A stretch of DNA of 31,192 nt from a virus, in UHGV virus genome UHGV-0019120; one strand, given 5' to 3'. Below are positions 8,253 through 17,250 of this stretch, in pieces. Every line of letters starts with the position of its first letter. Position 1 is the first letter of the stretch. Position numbers and translations under genes: made by a program. The notes below the pieces were generated by a model. That model was given only the letters and a program-made list of their open reading frames with translations. It did no database searches and was not told where the DNA came from.

Positions 8253-8276
8253 TAAAAAAGGCCCCCGAAGGGGCCT
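8253..8276 (-). terminator. intrinsic terminator for the minus-strand small gene
   Basis: GGCCCC-CGAA-GGGGCC hairpin; A6 on the plus strand gives a U-run on the minus strand. Confidence 0.55.
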
Positions 8277-8281
8277 AATCG

Positions 8282-8404
8282 CTACTTGCTGCTAATGTTT
8301 ATCGTCACATTCAGAGCGTTATCAGTAATCTTCCAACCCTCCCCATGTGGCGTAAACAAAGCCCCAGTAACAACGATAAAAATACACATACAGTATTTTT
8401 TCAT
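8282..8404 (-). CDS. small hydrophobic peptide (about 40 aa)
   Basis: MKKYCMCIFIVVTGALF... with AAGGG RBS and own terminator; track ORF 8282..8464 is longer. Confidence 0.3.
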   Translation of the reverse strand: MKKYCMCIFIVVTGALFTPHGEGWKITDNALNVTINISSK

Positions 8405-8802
8405 TGTATGGCCCTTACAGGCCGTTTCACGGCATCCCCACCGACGAAAACAACGCGAGAGCAAGCACGGCTGCTTGTGCTTGCATGTACGGCAACGGAG
8501 AATCCTCCCCTAAAGTCGGTGCCCGGGTGCGAATCGGCGGGAAGGTCCACAGGTATTTTACGATTATTTTAAGATTAGTAATAGGAAAGAAATTAAACGA
8601 AAAAACTCGTTTATTTTCACAAAATCAGTAACCTACCCACAATCTGTGAGTTTGCAGGCACAACAAGAACCACAATTTTTTGAAGCATAATAGTGGACTA
8701 TTATTACCTTTTGGGTAAAATTAACTTGCTGCTTGTGCTTGCGTGGTTGTTTATACAACGACGTTATGCTGAAAGGACCGCGAATCCGATCAGCACGAAA
8801 GA

Positions 8803-8883: not shown

Positions 8884-8994
8884 GTATTGACATGAATGCG
8901 CCATTGGTGGACACTTTCCGAGCCGTAGCAAAATCTACGGTCGGGATTGGAACCCCGTAGACACAATGGCGCATACCGCGTTAGCGGTTTTTTT
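8884..8994 (+). ncRNA. candidate structured small RNA (c4-like antisense regulator)
   Basis: Extended -10 TGtTAAAAT near 8866-8874; 9-bp outer stem 8898-8906/8964-8972 enclosing two hairpins, one with loop ATTGGAAC; ends at short hairpin plus T7 (8975-8994). No ORF. Confidence 0.35.
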
Positions 8995-9160
8995 ATGCGT
9001 AAAGCACTGCTACACCCAAATTATGGTGGGGCGTGCGGGGGAGTCGTAAGACTCGCCGGTTCGTCATTGTGTCCGGTAGTTCCAACCCTGCACGTCTCAC
9101 CACCCAATGATTGGAACCTGACGGTGGTGAGTATCCTTAACCTTTAAGGGAATCATCACA

Positions 9161-9352
9161 ATGACAAACCTACCCCATGACTATTACGTCAACCTCGTAA
9201 AGATCCTTCTCAAGAAAGCCTCATACGCCGATAAATTCCGCCTGGCTGAAATCATCGAGCGCGAAGCTATGCGCATCGCCAGCAACGATAACGCTGTTTC
9301 TGACGCAAAAATCTCCCTCGTAACCAAAGTAGTTATGGGAGGTGCAAAATGA
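9161..9352 (+). CDS. small protein translationally coupled to the antirepressor (icd-like position)
   Basis: 63 aa; AAGGGA RBS; stop overlaps start of the next gene (ATGA-type overlap at 9349-9352). Confidence 0.4.
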   Translation: MTNLPHDYYVNLVKILLKKASYADKFRLAEIIEREAMRIASNDNAVSDAKISLVTKVVMGGAK

Positions 9353-10494
9353 AAACGCTTCCGACCGTTAACACCCTACAGCCTATCCTGCATAACCAAA
9401 TCCCTGTCATTACTACCGAGTTACTAGCACAGCTTTACGGCACTGAGCCGGTGCGTATTCGCCAGAATCATCATGAGAACAAAGCACGTTTCGTTGAAGG
9501 GAAACACTTTTTCAAAGTTGTTGGTAATGACCTTAAAGAATTGCGGGTAGCTTTAAACTACTCTCAAAATCCAGTTTCACCTAAAGTCCGCTCCCTCATC
9601 CTCTGGACAGAACGCGGGGCTGCACGTCACGCTAAAATGCTCGAAACCGATCAGGCGTGGGATGTATTCGAACGGCTGGAAGACTGCTACTTCAACCAGA
9701 ACGCGCAAACGGCCGCGACCGTAACCGTCTCACCAAACAATGCTCGTGAGGTTGTCGATACGCTCAACGCTAAACCAATGTATTACGTTAAGGTGTGCAA
9801 CAACGAGCCACTCACAACCTCAGCCGATGTTGCCCAGGCATTCAGCACCACAAACAATTCCATCGTTATGGCCATCGATGCGTTACGCATTCCTCGCACA
9901 GCTGCGGCGCGTCACTTCTTTAAAGAACAACGACCGCTGGAAGGAAGCGACCGCGAAATAACAATCTATCGCATGACAAAAGACGGATTTACCTTGCTCA
10001 TGGAAAGTATCGACGGTCCAGGCGTGAAGGATATCAAGCTGGCCTACATTGAAGCCTTTAACGCTATCAGCAGCATGTTAAAGGCAGAATACGAGCGAAT
10101 GCTATACAACCGACTGTATCAGGAAACAAAGATTATCCGAACGGCAACAGAACATCATCGGCTATTAACGGAACCAAACTACCGCAAGACACTAATCAAA
10201 GAGTTTGACAAGGCGACGGAGAAAACTAAAGCGGCACTAAATCTACCAACAATGACTAAAGATGATGTGATATCAGCCTTACTTCTTGATCTGCTCAGAA
10301 ACGTCAGAGCACTTATCAGTTTTGACGAAAACCTGAATCCTCAGCTCAAGCTACTACCACCGACAGGCAAAGTAGTCGACCAGGCTGATCACAACAGCAT
10401 ACTCAGCGTTCTGGATGCAAACCTGCCAGCCAGGACACTACAGGATCTGATAAAAACATGTGCTGATAAGCTGGCACAGAAAAGCAGACCATAA
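9349..10494 (+). CDS. phage antirepressor / regulatory protein (ORF6N-like plus Rha-like domains)
   Basis: 381 aa; N-terminal ITTELLAQLYG...EGKHFF...ILWTERGAARHAKMLETDQAWDVFERLEDCYF resembles ORF6N; central TTSADVAQAF...YRMTKDGFTLLM...IEAFN resembles Rha. Confidence 0.7.
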   Translation: MKTLPTVNTLQPILHNQIPVITTELLAQLYGTEPVRIRQNHHENKARFVEGKHFFKVVGNDLKELRVALNYSQNPVSPKVRSLILWTERGAARHAKMLETDQAWDVFERLEDCYFNQNAQTAATVTVSPNNAREVVDTLNAKPMYYVKVCNNEPLTTSADVAQAFSTTNNSIVMAIDALRIPRTAAARHFFKEQRPLEGSDREITIYRMTKDGFTLLMESIDGPGVKDIKLAYIEAFNAISSMLKAEYERMLYNRLYQETKIIRTATEHHRLLTEPNYRKTLIKEFDKATEKTKAALNLPTMTKDDVISALLLDLLRNVRALISFDENLNPQLKLLPPTGKVVDQADHNSILSVLDANLPARTLQDLIKTCADKLAQKSRP

Positions 10495-12549: not shown

Positions 12550-12849
12550 TTAGACATGGAACGCTACTCGCTTTCCTGTAGGAAGCTCAACATCCAGGCT
12601 TAATTTGCCTCCCATAGCTTCAACGTAACGCTTTAATGTCGCCAGCTTTAAATCATTTCCGCGCTGCTCCAGCTTTGTTACTGCTGGCTGGCTTATACCC
12701 ATCGCCTCAGCAACCTGTTTTTGTGATAACTGGAGTTCTTCACGCATCATCTGCAAGCCGACCTCAAGAATCATCTCATCTGCCATTTCTTTAATTCGCG
12801 CCTGGCTTTCAGGTGAACGGCAGGCAATCACCTCATCTAATGTTCTCAT
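12550..12849 (-). CDS. HigA-like XRE-family antitoxin
   Basis: 99 aa; HTH LSQKQVAEAMGISQPAVTKLE; start overlaps toxin stop (ATGA at 12846-12849), downstream of the toxin as in HigBA-type modules. Confidence 0.7.
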   Translation of the reverse strand: MRTLDEVIACRSPESQARIKEMADEMILEVGLQMMREELQLSQKQVAEAMGISQPAVTKLEQRGNDLKLATLKRYVEAMGGKLSLDVELPTGKRVAFHV

Positions 12850-13196
12850 TACTTGCTCTCCAGTGTGTTCAGATGTGCTGCAAACTCATCCTCAGCTATA
12901 CGCACCAGTTTTTTATAAAACCGCTTATCGTTACTTTTGTCTCCTGCACAAAGAACGATGGCCCGACGAATCGGATCGAACGCATAAAAGGCTCTTATCG
13001 GACGGCCAGAAAACTGAACGCGAAGCTCTTTCATATTTTTGTACCGAGAACCTTTTACGGTATCGGCATATGGCCTGGGTAACTCAGGTCCGTAAACCTG
13101 TAGATTTTTCAAATCAGCCAAAACCTTTTCCTGAAGAGCCTCTTCTTGCTCATTTAGCCAGTCGTCAAATCGCTGGCTAAAAAGTACCGTCCACAT
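12849..13196 (-). CDS. HigB/RelE-superfamily toxin (Gp49-like)
   Basis: About 116 aa from ATG 13196 (AGGA RBS); the ...YAFDPIRRAIVLCAGDKSNDKRF... C-terminus resembles phage Gp49/HigB-type toxins; track ORF 12849..13316 is longer. Confidence 0.6.
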   Translation of the reverse strand: MWTVLFSQRFDDWLNEQEEALQEKVLADLKNLQVYGPELPRPYADTVKGSRYKNMKELRVQFSGRPIRAFYAFDPIRRAIVLCAGDKSNDKRFYKKLVRIAEDEFAAHLNTLESK

Positions 13197-13440
13197 GCTC
13201 AATCCTATAACCTGTAGTTTATACCACTGACTATATAACCCGTAGGTTATAATTTCAAGAAAAACGGGGCTATTTAACATAATGGACGTTATCGGCACCA
13301 CCGGATCACCGTTCATTGTCGGATCTAAAAAATCCGCTCAAAAGATCATGTTTTCCTGGGCGTTTTCCACCGTTTTTTATGTTGCTTATTTGTTAATGAA
13401 ATCTCGTTTTCAGTTTCGCCTCATTTTCGACGCGAAAGCC

Positions 13441-13731: not shown

Positions 13732-14027
13732 ACATCTGTTTTGTTATCAATGAAGATTAACCCTAACCCAGCGAAGTAACACAGCAGCGCCCAGGCTGCA
13801 TACGGAATGCTGGATCTGGATGTGGACTCCTTTAACATCTGCCAGTTGCGAACATTGCGACTATCTTTTAAGCCTAGTTTTTTGGCTAACTGCGAGCCGC
13901 TCATTCCGGTCAGGCCAATGACTGCCCGAACTTCTCCACATGTAGGAGATTCCCATTCATCCGCTTTTTTTAAACAAGCCGGATTCAACATTTTTAAAAC
14001 AGTATCTTTATCCATAACCATCTCCAT
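13728..14027 (-). CDS. XRE-type HTH protein with C-terminal hydrophobic segment
   Basis: 99 aa; HTH LTGMSGSQLAKKLGLKDSRNVRNW then a roughly 20-residue hydrophobic stretch IPYAAWALLCYFAGLGLIFI. Confidence 0.45.
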   Translation of the reverse strand: MEMVMDKDTVLKMLNPACLKKADEWESPTCGEVRAVIGLTGMSGSQLAKKLGLKDSRNVRNWQMLKESTSRSSIPYAAWALLCYFAGLGLIFIDNKTDV

Positions 14028-14029
14028 TT

Positions 14030-14658
14030 ATTATATCTACGATGGTAGGAAATCTTTTCCTATGTAGCAATAGAAATTTACTACATTGCGTATAAGACAA
14101 GTTTTCTATGTCTAATAGGAAATGAGGTTTCTTACGTTTTATCGCGTTCTGATGGCTACTGTGTGCGTATTTATCGACGTTTATTGATAAGGCTCGCCCC
14201 TTCCTCCTGCAAAGCCCGGCCGTAGGCCTTATTTCGGCCTTATATAAATTGATTTTGTATAGTTCGAAACGCGCCGTTTCGAAAAGGATGATCAGGCTGC
14301 TCCATGCCTCCGGCAAGTGCCGGAGGAGGTATATTTGAGCGTAGCGACTCGAACCGGCGCGAGCTTTAGCTCGCTGCAAGGGCGAACATATTCACAGGCA
14401 AAGCCTGTGTAAGTTAAATAAAGAAAGTCTTAATAAAAGAAAGTAATTTTGCATTTATTTGTTTAGTGCATCTATTATAAAAAACCATTTGCATATACAT
14501 ATCAAAACTGTGGATAACTTTATTAGCCGATGCCTGTAAAGGCGATATTTTTGCTGTGTTCAGGTTTAGAGAAAATTAATTTAGATTGTTTTTTGAACAG
14601 ATGTTTTATTGCGACGTAGATAATCCTCCGGTAAAACCGGATTCATCATTCAGGTGGG
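14030..14658. other. candidate replication origin (oriR-like) downstream of repA
   Basis: AT-rich tract 14400-14600 with perfect DnaA box TTATCCACA (minus strand, 14509-14517) and a cluster of GC-rich perfect hairpins at 14263-14409. Confidence 0.45.
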
Positions 14659-15639
14659 TTAATGTTGGAGTGATTTCCAGGTCTTTCTTAACCTGTTATA
14701 ACGCTGCTCAACGAGGGATCGTAAATATGCAAGGTCAGCTCCAGGATACATGCCATCAGCAAATTCCTGGCTAACCTCTCTAGTGATTTGATGACGAAGT
14801 TCGGCCTCTCCCTTTTCCCGAACAAGACGCGCAGCTCTCTCCGCTGCTTTCTGTTTTGCCTTTATCTCTCTGGCCGTCTTCCTCTGACGCCATACATTCT
14901 CCATCTGCTCCTGAATAACAATACGCTTATAATCAGCCTCCGTTATCGCTTTTTTAAGCCGTTCGCTATTCCTCGCATTGAAGTAATTAAGTTTCTGGCT
15001 AACCGCACGTCTCCATGCTTGTTCAGTAATACCAACGGTTTCCAGCAGTTGATCACGAATCTCTATTTTCGCAGGCCAATACTGTTTATTCACCCGATCC
15101 CAGCGACGTTCATAATCAATAAAACCTAACGCTTTCAGTTGCGACAACGCCCTTGTACAGCGCGTTATAGACTTGTTCCCAGCTTCGGATACGGTAGACA
15201 GGCCGCAAAAATCAGACAACGCCTCAGCACTGGCCAGAACCCGCTTAGAAATGATGTTTACATGGTACAACATCGCAGCAATCAGAGCATTAAACGCCCG
15301 ACGACGATGTTCGTTTATCCGGCGTTTCCGCTCTGACGGTTGATTAACGTAGAACGCAACCTCACACGTAAGATCACGACCATTAATGCGCTGTAAAGCA
15401 TCAGATAACACCAGCGGCAGCTTGTGCGTATGGCGCTTTGGAGGCTGGAACTCCGGCGACAAATTACAAACGTAAGCTGAACGTAGAGACGGCATTGGTC
15501 TATCCATATGTTCGCTCTTGCGTCCACGGAAAACCAACGTATAATGGGAGTTGTCGAGGCGCCCATGGATTGTTGTTGTTGGTTTTCCGTGGATGTCGCA
15601 AGAAGCCCGCAGATTTATCTGCGGGCTTTTTGTTTCCAT
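14659..15639 (-). CDS. repA: IncFII-type plasmid replication initiator RepA
   Basis: Central LSTVSEAGNKSITRCTRALSQLKALGFIDY closely parallels R100/R1 RepA1 as I recall it; Arg/Lys-rich coiled C-terminus also similar. Start uncertain: ATG 15639 or internal ATG 15507. Confidence 0.75.
   Translation of the reverse strand: METKSPQINLRASCDIHGKPTTTIHGRLDNSHYTLVFRGRKSEHMDRPMPSLRSAYVCNLSPEFQPPKRHTHKLPLVLSDALQRINGRDLTCEVAFYVNQPSERKRRINEHRRRAFNALIAAMLYHVNIISKRVLASAEALSDFCGLSTVSEAGNKSITRCTRALSQLKALGFIDYERRWDRVNKQYWPAKIEIRDQLLETVGITEQAWRRAVSQKLNYFNARNSERLKKAITEADYKRIVIQEQMENVWRQRKTAREIKAKQKAAERAARLVREKGEAELRHQITREVSQEFADGMYPGADLAYLRSLVEQRYNRLRKTWKSLQH
15520..15635 (+). ncRNA. candidate antisense copy-control RNA (CopA-like) opposite the repA 5' region
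   Basis: 15-17-bp perfect inverted repeat (15524-15538 / 15578-15592) then a strong plus-strand intrinsic terminator (15603-15632); no plus-strand coding potential. Promoter not identified. Confidence 0.35.
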
Positions 15640-15675
15640 ATCTGGTCATTTTCCAACCAGACACCCACAATCATA

Positions 15676-15690
15676 ACCACGTTACGTGGT
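15676..15690. promoter_or_regulatory. CI-type operator palindrome upstream of repA
   Basis: ACCACGTTACGTGGT, same ACCAC-N5-GTGGT architecture as the immunity operators; abuts a minus-strand TATGAT -10 candidate. Confidence 0.5.
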
Positions 15691-16105
15691 TTTACGAGAA
15701 CTCTACCACAACACTTTCGGTCATGCACGAAGTCTCTCACTGATCGAACGATAATCCACCAGTAAAAGGATCTAAATTGGATCTCGTTTTGCGAGCATCA
15801 TACTACTGGCCTAACTCCAGTCAATGATTCCCAGCCAGAAACCTGCGGTAAACTCATCGTTCAGCAATATGCTGTCCGGCTTCAAAGATAAGGTGACATC
15901 ATCCCTTAACAGCGCGGCCAGTTCAGTTAAAGGGCTGTTCTGATTTAATGCTGGCCACTCATACCTGGTAATAAGTGGTCAGTCTTAACACTCACCATTT
16001 GATTGCACCCGTGTTGACGATTTGTTACTGGATATCAGACACGCTGGATAGCCAGTAGAAACATACCATTAAAATTATTACAATAATTGGTCACATGATT
16101 ATCTT

Positions 16106-16669
16106 ATGCTGAATAATAAAGATATGAATATTAATGAACTTAAAGACTGTATTCACTATGAAGTAATCGGTAGCGAGCGTCCTTTCTCCTGGCGAAAGGC
16201 AATTGTTCGCGCAATAAAACATAGAAGGGTTCGTTATTTATTTTGGTGGCGCATAGCCAAATACCTTTTTGATAAAGGCGGATACTGTCGGAAGATTGCG
16301 GGAAAAATAGAACGTTTCATTCTTGATAAATATAATGTAACAGTCCCTTTAACTGTAAATATAGGGAAAGGCTTTGATATTTCTTATCTCAACAGTGTTG
16401 TTATCGGTCACAAAGTAACAATCGGTGAAAATTGTTCAATTAAGCCCGGAGTAACTATTGGACTTCGCGGGGAATTTAATGATATGGATATTGTTATAGG
16501 GCATAATGTGACCATTGGTTGTAATGCCACCATTCTTGGTGGCAAAGTGCGTATAGGAAACAATGTCACAATAGGTGCTCATGCATTGGTATTGCATGAT
16601 ATTCCTGATGATTCAACATTCATCACTAAATTTCAGTCTGAAGTTATCTGCTCGTCCTCCCGAACATAA
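16106..16669 (+). CDS. hexapeptide-repeat (left-handed beta-helix) acyl/acetyltransferase
   Basis: 187 aa; repeated [LIV]-G-x-x-x-x-I-G hexapeptides; only plus-strand gene next to the tail module; 3' end overlaps the convergent fibre assembly gene. Confidence 0.6.
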
Positions 16670-17250
16670 CCCTGATTCATCAGCTCTGGCCATACGATAT
16701 CCGGAGCTGTACTGGTGTCAATTCTACTCACTAATACTCTGTATTTTCTCCAGGAATCCAGTTGTGAATTTTCCTCGTTTGTTGCTATTTCAAGATTAAC
16801 TGCATCCTGCAGAATTGCGATGTTATCTGTTGCTTCCTGGATCAACCTTGCCTTTTTCTCTTCCGCTTCCCGTATCCGAAACAGTTTTTCTGCTTCCTCA
16901 TCCGTCACCCAGGATACGCCGTCCCACTTCTGATACTCCCCTGCTGGCGACAACCAGGTGACATTCTCTGGTAGCGGTCCGAGTTCAGAAATAAACAATG
17001 CGTCCCCCGACGCCACGTCATAGACCGTTTTACCACGATGGTCTTCAACAATATTCCACGATTCATTTTCACTGTTAAAAACTGCCACAAAGCCAGCAGG
17101 AATTTCCGGTGGGGCGATATCTGTAGAATTAGCTGGCAGCCCTGTATGAGGTGGAATATATGCGTCACCTTCACCAATAAACTCATTAGTTCCGGCCAGC
17201 AGGTTATAAATTTTTACGGTACGTGATTGTTCACTCATTCTGAATGCCAT
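16633..17250 (-). CDS. tail fibre assembly protein (gpG/Tfa-like)
   Basis: 205 aa immediately downstream of the tail fibre; sequence style typical of Tfa chaperones. Confidence 0.8.

Follow-up and report, generated by a model that had tools for sequence, protein, structure and literature searches.

The repA leader and its two hairpins

The DNA examined here is the virus genome UHGV-0019120, 31,192 nucleotides (nt) read on one strand and referred to below as the window, and our subject is the region that precedes its replication initiator gene, repA, on the minus strand. A mechanically called open reading frame (ORF) spans 14659–15639 on that strand (326 amino acids, aa), and two hairpins fall within its first 40 codons. 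An earlier sequence-only reading had pointed out a long perfect stem, a hairpin with a T-run and their overlap with the first 40 codons of a frame starting at 15639, all of which are borne out by the repeats and the ORF map. The long stem is an inverted repeat of 16 nt (15523–15538/15578–15593; 100% complementary, arms 39 nt apart), extended to 22 bp by an outer helix CTTGCG/CGCAAG (15517–15522/15597–15602). The second repeat (15599–15614/15617–15632; 16 nt, 94%) has a GC-rich core and is followed by TTTTTGTTT up to 15635. The plus strand from 15518 to 15637 folds at -68 kcal/mol, compared with -32.6 +/- 3.4 for 200 dinucleotide shuffles (z = -10.3), none of which was equally stable. Judging from sequence comparison, this region is very probably an untranslated leader with a cis-antisense control element, RepA starting downstream of it at 15507 or 15495. 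The features on which the argument turns are as follows.

14659–15507, minus strand: repA coding sequence, 282 aa from ATG 15507, or 278 aa if ATG 15495 is used
15508–15790, minus strand: predicted untranslated leader of the repA mRNA, including the stretch mis-called as codons 1–44
15517–15602, minus strand: long leader hairpin of the repA mRNA, a 6-bp outer and a 16-bp perfect helix around the patch and the inner hairpin
15544–15566, minus strand: inner hairpin AUGGG/CCCAU with apical loop CGCCUCGACAACU, whose complement would form the 5' end of the antisense RNA
15567–15577, no strand assigned: hypervariable patch, AACAACAAUCC in the mRNA sense, the apical loop of stem-loop 1 (SL1) in the short RNA
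15518–15545, plus strand: predicted antisense-RNA promoter, -35 TTGCGT (15518–15523), 16-nt spacer, -10 TATAAT (15540–15545)
15552–15635, plus strand: predicted antisense RNA of about 82 nt, with a 5' tail, SL1 (15563–15569/15586–15592) and the terminator stem-loop 2 (SL2)
15599–15635, plus strand: putative intrinsic terminator of the antisense RNA, core 15605–15613/15618–15626, T-run 15627–15635
15493–15539, minus strand: predicted alternative helix, in which the 3' arm (15525–15539) pairs with 15493–15508, with tip hairpin CGC-AAGA-GCG

The start of RepA

The upstream frame is broken by insertions and deletions in related plasmids. Among E. coli-type relatives that are >97% identical, patch indels of -1 or +2 nt interrupt it (L042, L043, L045, L021, L169, and L170), and in Salmonella and Klebsiella relatives, whose repA is 71–75% identical, indels of 7, 2, and other numbers of nt in the hairpin loop do the same. 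The sequence-only reading had taken 15508–15639 as leader and had named an alignment of RepA homologues as a check; in that alignment, all 14 homologues (33–84% identity, about 277 aa long) begin at most two residues from window Met49, and none of the 14 has the N-terminal 44-residue extension as protein. RepA homologues start at window Met45–49, and the Pfam and NCBIfam profiles begin at Met49 +/- 10 residues. Calls by the Prokaryotic Genome Annotation Pipeline (PGAP) in near-identical plasmids differ (326, 282, and 278 aa), the 326-aa call being the commonest, with a cluster of 525 member sequences. These comparisons strongly support the view that 15508–15639 (132 nt, beginning at ATG 15639) is leader rather than coding sequence; the leader chances to be open, making the 326-aa call an artefact, and the annotated protein is almost certainly 44 residues too long.

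Within the shorter frame, initiation at ATG 15507, as the sequence-only reading had suggested, is well supported and we regard it as the probable start. Read from this codon (MDRPMPSLRSA...), RepA aligns from residue 1 with an initiator found behind the same cassette in the group-B leaders described below (MDNHTPTLRPG; 34% identity, E = 7e-27), so that 15507 is homologous to the start codon of the cassette itself. PGAP places the RepA start at the equivalent position in the relative L170, members of the E. coli subgroup have the equivalent ATG in the RepA frame, and a Shine–Dalgarno (SD)-like AAGAG (15515–15519) lies 7 nt upstream. ATG 15495 (Met49) is a less favoured but substantial alternative. 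It is the only Met conserved throughout group A, and RepA must start at its equivalent in the Salmonella and Klebsiella subgroups, where the cassette AUG lies in another frame.

Conservation of the leader as RNA

We compared 27 unique leaders, 9 cassette loci having been obtained via protein or BLAST searches and the remainder via a DNA pattern; the divergent cassette L171 was added via protein retrieval only. Identity forms a mosaic. The inner hairpin together with TATAAT (27 nt) is 96–100% identical, compared with 71–75% for the repA coding sequence; the terminator hairpin is 83–93% and the segment from the 3' arm to the SD 81–88% identical, and the 5' arm plus patch falls to 57–77% between neighbouring segments at 83–100%. 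The inner hairpin is invariant in group A and its core is common to group B. At the other extreme, the patch (15567–15577) occurs in at least eight variants, including indels of -1, -3, and +2 nt, among E. coli-type leaders that are >97% identical.

Both hairpins covary. All 13 pairs of the terminator helix are formed in each of 22 distinct sequences (100% paired), three of them changing on both sides, a result matched by 0 of 500 shuffles and by no slide. One pair of the lower stem is G.U on the plus strand in 21 of the 22 sequences and would be A.C in the mRNA sense. In group A, 96% of the long helix is paired and two of its pairs are compensated (none of 500 shuffles equals this); group B and L171 build it from wholly different arms that are complementary nonetheless, with a matched 2-bp shortening among the changes. 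From these patterns, the element is conserved as RNA and promoter, not as protein.

The terminator hairpin has a 9-bp GC core, a 4-nt loop, and then directly TTTTTGTTT, the form of a Rho-independent terminator. It lies on the plus strand, where no gene is found upstream of it. A simple terminator scanner did not list the hairpin at 15599–15635 in the window, nor in relatives; in our reading, the upstream A-run pairs with the T-run, and the scanner counts the T-run as stem. Permissive Rfam scans of the window and nine relatives gave partial matches that align the hairpin as a generic Rho-independent terminator (CsrC 3' hairpin, E = 4e-4; the terminator part of Thr_leader). Thr_leader (31 bits against a gathering score of 55), Leu_leader, and the CsrC 3' hairpin were rejected as families, being generic terminator or leader look-alikes.

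A predicted short antisense RNA

The only plus-strand promoter-like site common to all 27 unique leaders is TTGC...TATAAT, present as TTGCGT-16-TATAAT in group A, TTGCAT-18-TATAAT in group B, and TTGCTT-16-TATAAT in L171. It is kept in the protein-retrieved loci L002, L004, L014, and L016–L020, as well as in the divergent L171. Its hexamers match the sigma-70 consensus at 9 of 12 positions, with a perfect -10. The sequence-only reading had placed the long stem inside a plus-strand RNA of roughly 100 nt; this is probably wrong, as the conserved promoter-like site lies inside the stem-loop and predicts an RNA of about 82 nt. On the plus strand, the 5' arm of the stem would then be promoter spacer, and the RNA would be without it.

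From the position of these hexamers, the antisense RNA is predicted to start near 15552; the transcript and its role in copy control are inferred. The short RNA is predicted to fold identically in 12 of 12 variants into a 5' tail, an SL1 capped by the patch as apical loop, and the terminator; SL1 is 98% paired, with G-C, G.U, and A-U seen at one pair.

Predicted refolding of the repA mRNA

We modelled binding by blocking the part of the mRNA complementary to the antisense RNA and folding the mRNA anew under this constraint. In the window, the blocked fold contains a 15-bp helix with four G.U pairs, which covers both candidate AUGs and is capped by CGC-AAGA-GCG; the unpaired probability of AUG 15495 falls from 0.50 in the free to 0.02 in the bound state. 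Folds of this topology are predicted for three group-A subgroups, which differ in sequence 5' of the RepA AUG; the partner sequences AGACCAAUG, CCAGCG-AUG, and UUCAACG-AUG are all complementary to a constant CGUUGG, and one U-A pair is exchanged for A-U between subgroups. In blocked group-B leaders, CCUGGC is released and pairs with a G(U/C)CAGG that overlaps the SD. When a full-length RNA is bound instead, accessibility alters little.

These predictions can be assembled into a mechanism. The repA mRNA would start near 15790 and RepA would be translated from 15507 or, less likely, 15495. In the free mRNA, the 22-bp long hairpin would lock the 3' arm. A plus-strand promoter within the leader would drive a constitutive antisense RNA of about 82 nt, from about 15552 to 15635, which would pair with the 5' arm, the patch, and the apical loop and release the 3' arm; the released arm would refold onto 15493–15508 and bury the start codons, and RepA synthesis would drop as copy number increases. 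The 16-bp repeat would thus be chiefly an mRNA hairpin, its 3' arm refolding onto the start codons once the RNA is bound. The refolding step is inferred from these folds. Since no U-run follows the alternative helix, antisense-induced transcription attenuation is unlikely, and we rejected it as an explanation.

Weighing the model against its rivals

On balance, we lean narrowly towards the architecture of a short RNA combined with refolding, and several observations weigh against it. The -35 element matches at only three of six positions, so that a standard promoter scanner does not list the antisense promoter. The DNA pattern that retrieved L021–L053 contains ATTATA, and the invariance of TATAAT is therefore independent only in the nine protein-retrieved cassette loci and the window; a rescan with a core pattern free of TATAAT gave, among the matches listed, only chance hits and loci already collected. 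Covariation in SL1 lacks significance (54 of 500 shuffles equal it). The plus strand is the better-folding one in every case but is G+U-rich, single substitutions point both ways, and G.U asymmetry does not reveal to which strand the long helix belongs. The stability of the alternative helix is modest, with z = -1.7 to -2.4 relative to shuffles and -0.9 in L034. In the window, binding exposes the SD-like AAGAG further and leaves AUG 15507 as it was. L002 and L004 show no sequestration of the conserved RepA AUG, and the Salmonella Weltevreden type behaves differently at this AUG in the refolding test. Finally, L018 has a scanner-grade antisense-strand promoter, ATTACA-18-TATCAT, upstream of the whole hairpin.

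This last site would suit a longer plus-strand RNA of about 115 nt, starting at about 15520 and holding the long and the terminator hairpins like the two stem-loops of CopA, which would act first by loop-loop kissing and then through a duplex whose end, 4 nt from the SD, would be a steric block to ribosome binding. Known IncFII and I-complex antisense RNAs likewise include the whole target stem-loop. The full plus-strand segment is very stable and outfolds the mRNA strand in all variants, L018 and four group-B leaders carry substitutions that leave a G.U pair on the plus strand but A.C in the mRNA, and a weak TAGAGA-17-TATGTT can be read from the window sequence. However, the upstream promoter is not conserved: the window, L014, and L171 have no scanner-grade site upstream of the hairpin, and group-A subgroups do not share the same hexamers. 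A longer RNA would leave unexplained why TATAAT and TTGC are invariant within the hairpin, the better folding of the plus strand is partly compositional, and L002 has a U.G on the mRNA strand that is A.C on the plus strand. In group B, where the SD lies about 30 nt beyond the hairpin, the duplex would end about 30 nt short of the SD and binding of the long RNA barely alters accessibility; this RNA would have to act sterically, which could not work there; moreover, perfect bulge-free helices of 22 bp are atypical of plasmid antisense RNAs. We consider the longer RNA unlikely, though a serious competitor.

Much less probable is the absence of any antisense RNA, with the hairpins acting only in cis to stabilise or process the mRNA or as a constitutive attenuator, and with the plus-strand T-run incidental or part of a bidirectional terminator. 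The covariation of the long helix is compatible with an mRNA-only structure, and the mRNA-sense tail that follows the terminator hairpin is CUUCUUG in the window, UUUUUG in L038, and UUUUG in L171; from such tails, the hairpin at 15599–15632 may be bidirectional and end part of the repA transcripts early. The plus-strand T-run TTTTTGTTT is far better than these tails, however, and a purely cis role fits poorly with the lower-stem G.U that is A.C in the mRNA sense, with the lack of an upstream plus-strand gene needing a terminator, with a conserved TATAAT and TTGC that precede the terminator by about 90 nt on its own strand, and with the use of antisense RNAs by all related replicons. Hardly credible at all is a genuine 326-aa RepA with the structures merely lying within its coding sequence. 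The frame is open from ATG 15639 and is annotated by PGAP in most E. coli-type plasmids, giving the 525-member cluster, but it is broken in the six E. coli-type relatives named above and in all Salmonella and Klebsiella relatives, the segment bears non-triplet indels, no homologue has the extension as protein, and the Pfam profile begins at about residue 53.

The replicon and its carriers

Tail sheath, tape-measure, and tail-fibre genes identify the window as a phage-plasmid, and we read the element, with moderate confidence, as a cassette that controls the copy number of an IncFII/L-M-superfamily replicon carried by a myovirus-type phage-plasmid of about 48 kb. The plasmid family to which it belongs is 47–49 kb in size, is non-mobilizable, and is hosted by Escherichia coli, Salmonella, and Klebsiella; the Yersinia phages vB_YpM_39, 41, and 44 also belong to it. 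The cassette occurs in 71 of 5426 complete E. coli genomes (about 1.3%), where it is plasmid-borne every time; the E. coli reference strain ATCC 25922 is one carrier, with a copy that is 99% identical. RefSeq annotates no RNA feature at the cassette among the listed matches for the 71 E. coli plasmids, and our literature search found no paper on the replicon or on the Yersinia phages carrying the related element. The label 'pSLy3-like' does not apply to the carrier plasmids, as pSLy3 belongs to the SSU5 supergroup.

Pfam IncFII_repA (154 bits) covers residues 53–319 of the 326-aa ORF and begins at profile position 2, and NCBIfam NF040977 (RepA_IncFII_LM) gives 228 bits against a cut-off of 70, beginning at residue 10 when RepA is read from Met49. 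By contrast, the strict IncFII equivalog TIGR03474 gives 79 bits against a cut-off of 446.9, and classic IncFII RepA proteins are 28–38% identical to window RepA over partial length. By these profile scores, RepA is a member of the superfamily and not a strict IncFII protein. A sequence search of the PDB with RepA gave no relevant match.

Two further features are predicted for the replicon.

15797–15824, minus strand: predicted repA mRNA promoter, TTGACT-16-TATGAT, a promoter-scanner match at 10 of 12 positions
14420–14600, no strand assigned: probable replication origin, AT-rich, holding the only perfect DnaA box of the window

Both hexamers of the repA promoter are kept in Salmonella relatives, and the repA mRNA is predicted to start near 15790 with a leader of about 280 nt. 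The DnaA box, TTATCCACA at 14509–14517, lies in AT-rich DNA about 150 nt past the repA stop. In IncFII-type replicons the origin is positioned downstream of repA, and the AT-rich DNA with its DnaA box probably fits this arrangement.

Salmonella relatives keep two GATC sites (15769–15772 and 15780–15783) that fall at about +7 to +21 relative to the predicted start of the repA transcript; after replication, these could tie the expression of repA to Dam methylation or to the binding of SeqA. The 5' leader also contains a palindrome, AACCACGT-a-ACGTGGTT (15675–15691), whose stem AACCAC(G)/(C)GTGGTT is retained in Salmonella and Klebsiella relatives with a varying loop, and which may form a conserved hairpin in the leader or be bound by a protein. 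Similarity of the relatives to the window ends at about 15828–15852. Most relatives have a hin-type DNA invertase beside the repA promoter; the window and L001 have in its place an ORF for a hexapeptide-repeat 'transferase' (16106–16669, plus strand), and the region from about 15828 to 16669 is a variable and possibly invertible edge of the tail-fibre region.

Modularity of the cassette

At least three arrangements are seen downstream of the cassette. In L024, L025, L028, and L036, leaders of group B, a second lineage that bears the cassette, it is followed by a good SD and then by the 274-aa initiator of the IncFII_repA family that begins MDNHTPTLRPG. In the further group-B members L014, L016, L017, L022, L027, L035, and L051, only a 42–162-aa N-terminal remnant of that initiator is left, coupled translationally to a window-type RepA; the remnant stop overlaps the RepA ATG as ATGA in six of the seven, and in L017 the remnant ends a few codons inside repA. 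In the window, the cassette is fused in frame to RepA. Standing before different initiators or a remnant, the cassette behaves as a portable unit, and its placements, as read from these sequences, indicate recombination between replicon modules. The coupling of remnant and RepA in the hybrids is a by-product of recombination, not an ancestral leader peptide.

We tentatively go one step further, in a reading whose four parts, taken jointly, we hold to be somewhat less than an even prospect: that the cassette is a self-contained, portable translational switch; that the hairpin which holds the target mRNA in a translatable state also houses the antisense promoter; that the hypervariable apical loop sets incompatibility (superinfection) specificity among co-circulating phage-plasmids; and that recombination has placed the cassette before at least three downstream arrangements.

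Other features of the window

Rfam matches above the gathering score were ryfA (8254–8550, minus strand), isrK (8922–8994, plus strand), and the P1/P7-type C4 antisense RNA (9019–9107, plus strand). The C4 RNA lies directly upstream of an anti-repressor-like ORF (9349–10494, plus strand), with which, by sequence, it looks like a P1-style immI immunity module. A sub-threshold match to IS009 (16709–16907, minus strand; 79 bits against a gathering score of 117) falls inside the tail-fibre-assembly gene at 16633–17250 and probably reflects shared tfa-like coding sequence rather than a small RNA. Downstream of the replicon, a RelE/ParE-type toxin ORF (12849–13316, minus strand) with small neighbouring ORFs probably forms the addiction module of the plasmid.

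Significance

The replicon maintains phage-plasmids in E. coli (about 1.3% of complete genomes), Salmonella, and Klebsiella, as well as in virions isolated on Yersinia. Control of plasmid copy number by cis-antisense RNA is well known; the form proposed here is undescribed, and its control RNA is in no RNA-family library. If the model is true, the cassette would be a compact example of antisense-induced refolding that acts on translation, and the 11-nt hypervariable loop would be a candidate incompatibility determinant, which could explain the coexistence or superinfection of phage-plasmids.

Comparison with known copy-control systems

The sequence-only reading had proposed IncFII CopA-type antisense control; antisense control remains the best reading, whereas membership of the CopA family found no support, as Rfam CopA has no match. 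Searches with Rfam CopA (RF00042; gathering score 60 bits) gave no match in window positions 14000–17000 even at E<=10, and none at E<=1 in L002, L014, L017, and L018; the model did detect the positive controls, which lie next to Serratia RepA genes of about 31% identity and score 77.6 bits (L006) and 75.5 bits (L010). PK-repBA (RF01089) and PK-repZ (RF01087) of the I-complex likewise had no match in the window, L002, L014, L017, or L018, the positive control L013 scoring 49.3 bits against a gathering score of 45. None of the Rfam families of counter-transcribed RNA (ctRNA) matched in the window. L013 also encodes the nearest RepA outside the family (P0009; 62% identity in the search table and 60% in the alignment); a UUGGCG loop is present in its leader, as is a leader ORF of 15 codons that runs into the start of RepA.

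No conserved tap-like or repY-like leader peptide was found in relatives of the window. The window has a +1-frame ORF ending at TAG 15502–15500, but close relatives have GTG or CTG in place of its ATG or lack the codon, the Salmonella and Klebsiella subgroups have the ORF interrupted or not at all, and we rejected it as such a peptide. No CopB-sized ORF is present, the only minus-strand ORF of at least 25 aa at 15640–16090 being a 41-aa GTG ORF in the leader (15615–15740), and no CopB homology search was made; relatives have the DNA invertase at the CopB position. An I-complex pseudoknot was also rejected, the loop being depleted of complementarity to the start region: for the loop CGCCUCGACAACU and the 70 nt after the hairpin, 402–492 of 500 shuffles pair as well or better in group A.

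The element thus resembles CopA-CopT of the IncFII plasmids R1 and NR1 in its predicted small constitutive antisense RNA opposite the repA leader, in a RepA that belongs to Pfam IncFII_repA, in the probable DnaA-box origin downstream of repA, and in its expected role in copy-number and incompatibility control. It differs in lacking, in the window, a CopA match, the strict equivalog, a CopB-sized ORF, and a conserved tap-like peptide; in the position of its antisense promoter, which sits inside the target hairpin; and in the predicted inhibition via refolding rather than via blocked translation of a leader peptide. With the I-complex (IncB pMU720, RNAI/repB/repA; IncI1 ColIb-P9, Inc RNA/repY/repZ) it shares its nearest outside RepA, which has a PK-repBA leader, and, by prediction, a target stem-loop that is needed for translation and disabled by the antisense RNA; unlike the I-complex, the window has no PK-repBA or PK-repZ match, UUGGCG loop, conserved leader peptide, or pseudoknot partner, and it does have a separate dedicated terminator hairpin. 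From these comparisons, the element works like IncFII or I-complex antisense control and is a member of neither.

The logic of refolding is shared with plasmids of Gram-positive bacteria, namely pT181, pIP501, and pAMbeta1, which are controlled by attenuation, and pSK41, which is under dual control; in these, a countertranscript on the 5' half of a leader helix frees the 3' half for an alternative, inhibitory helix. The Rep proteins and RNAs of these plasmids are unrelated to those of the window. Their alternative helix is a transcription terminator, whereas that predicted here is without a U-run and covers the start codons, so that its effect would be translational.

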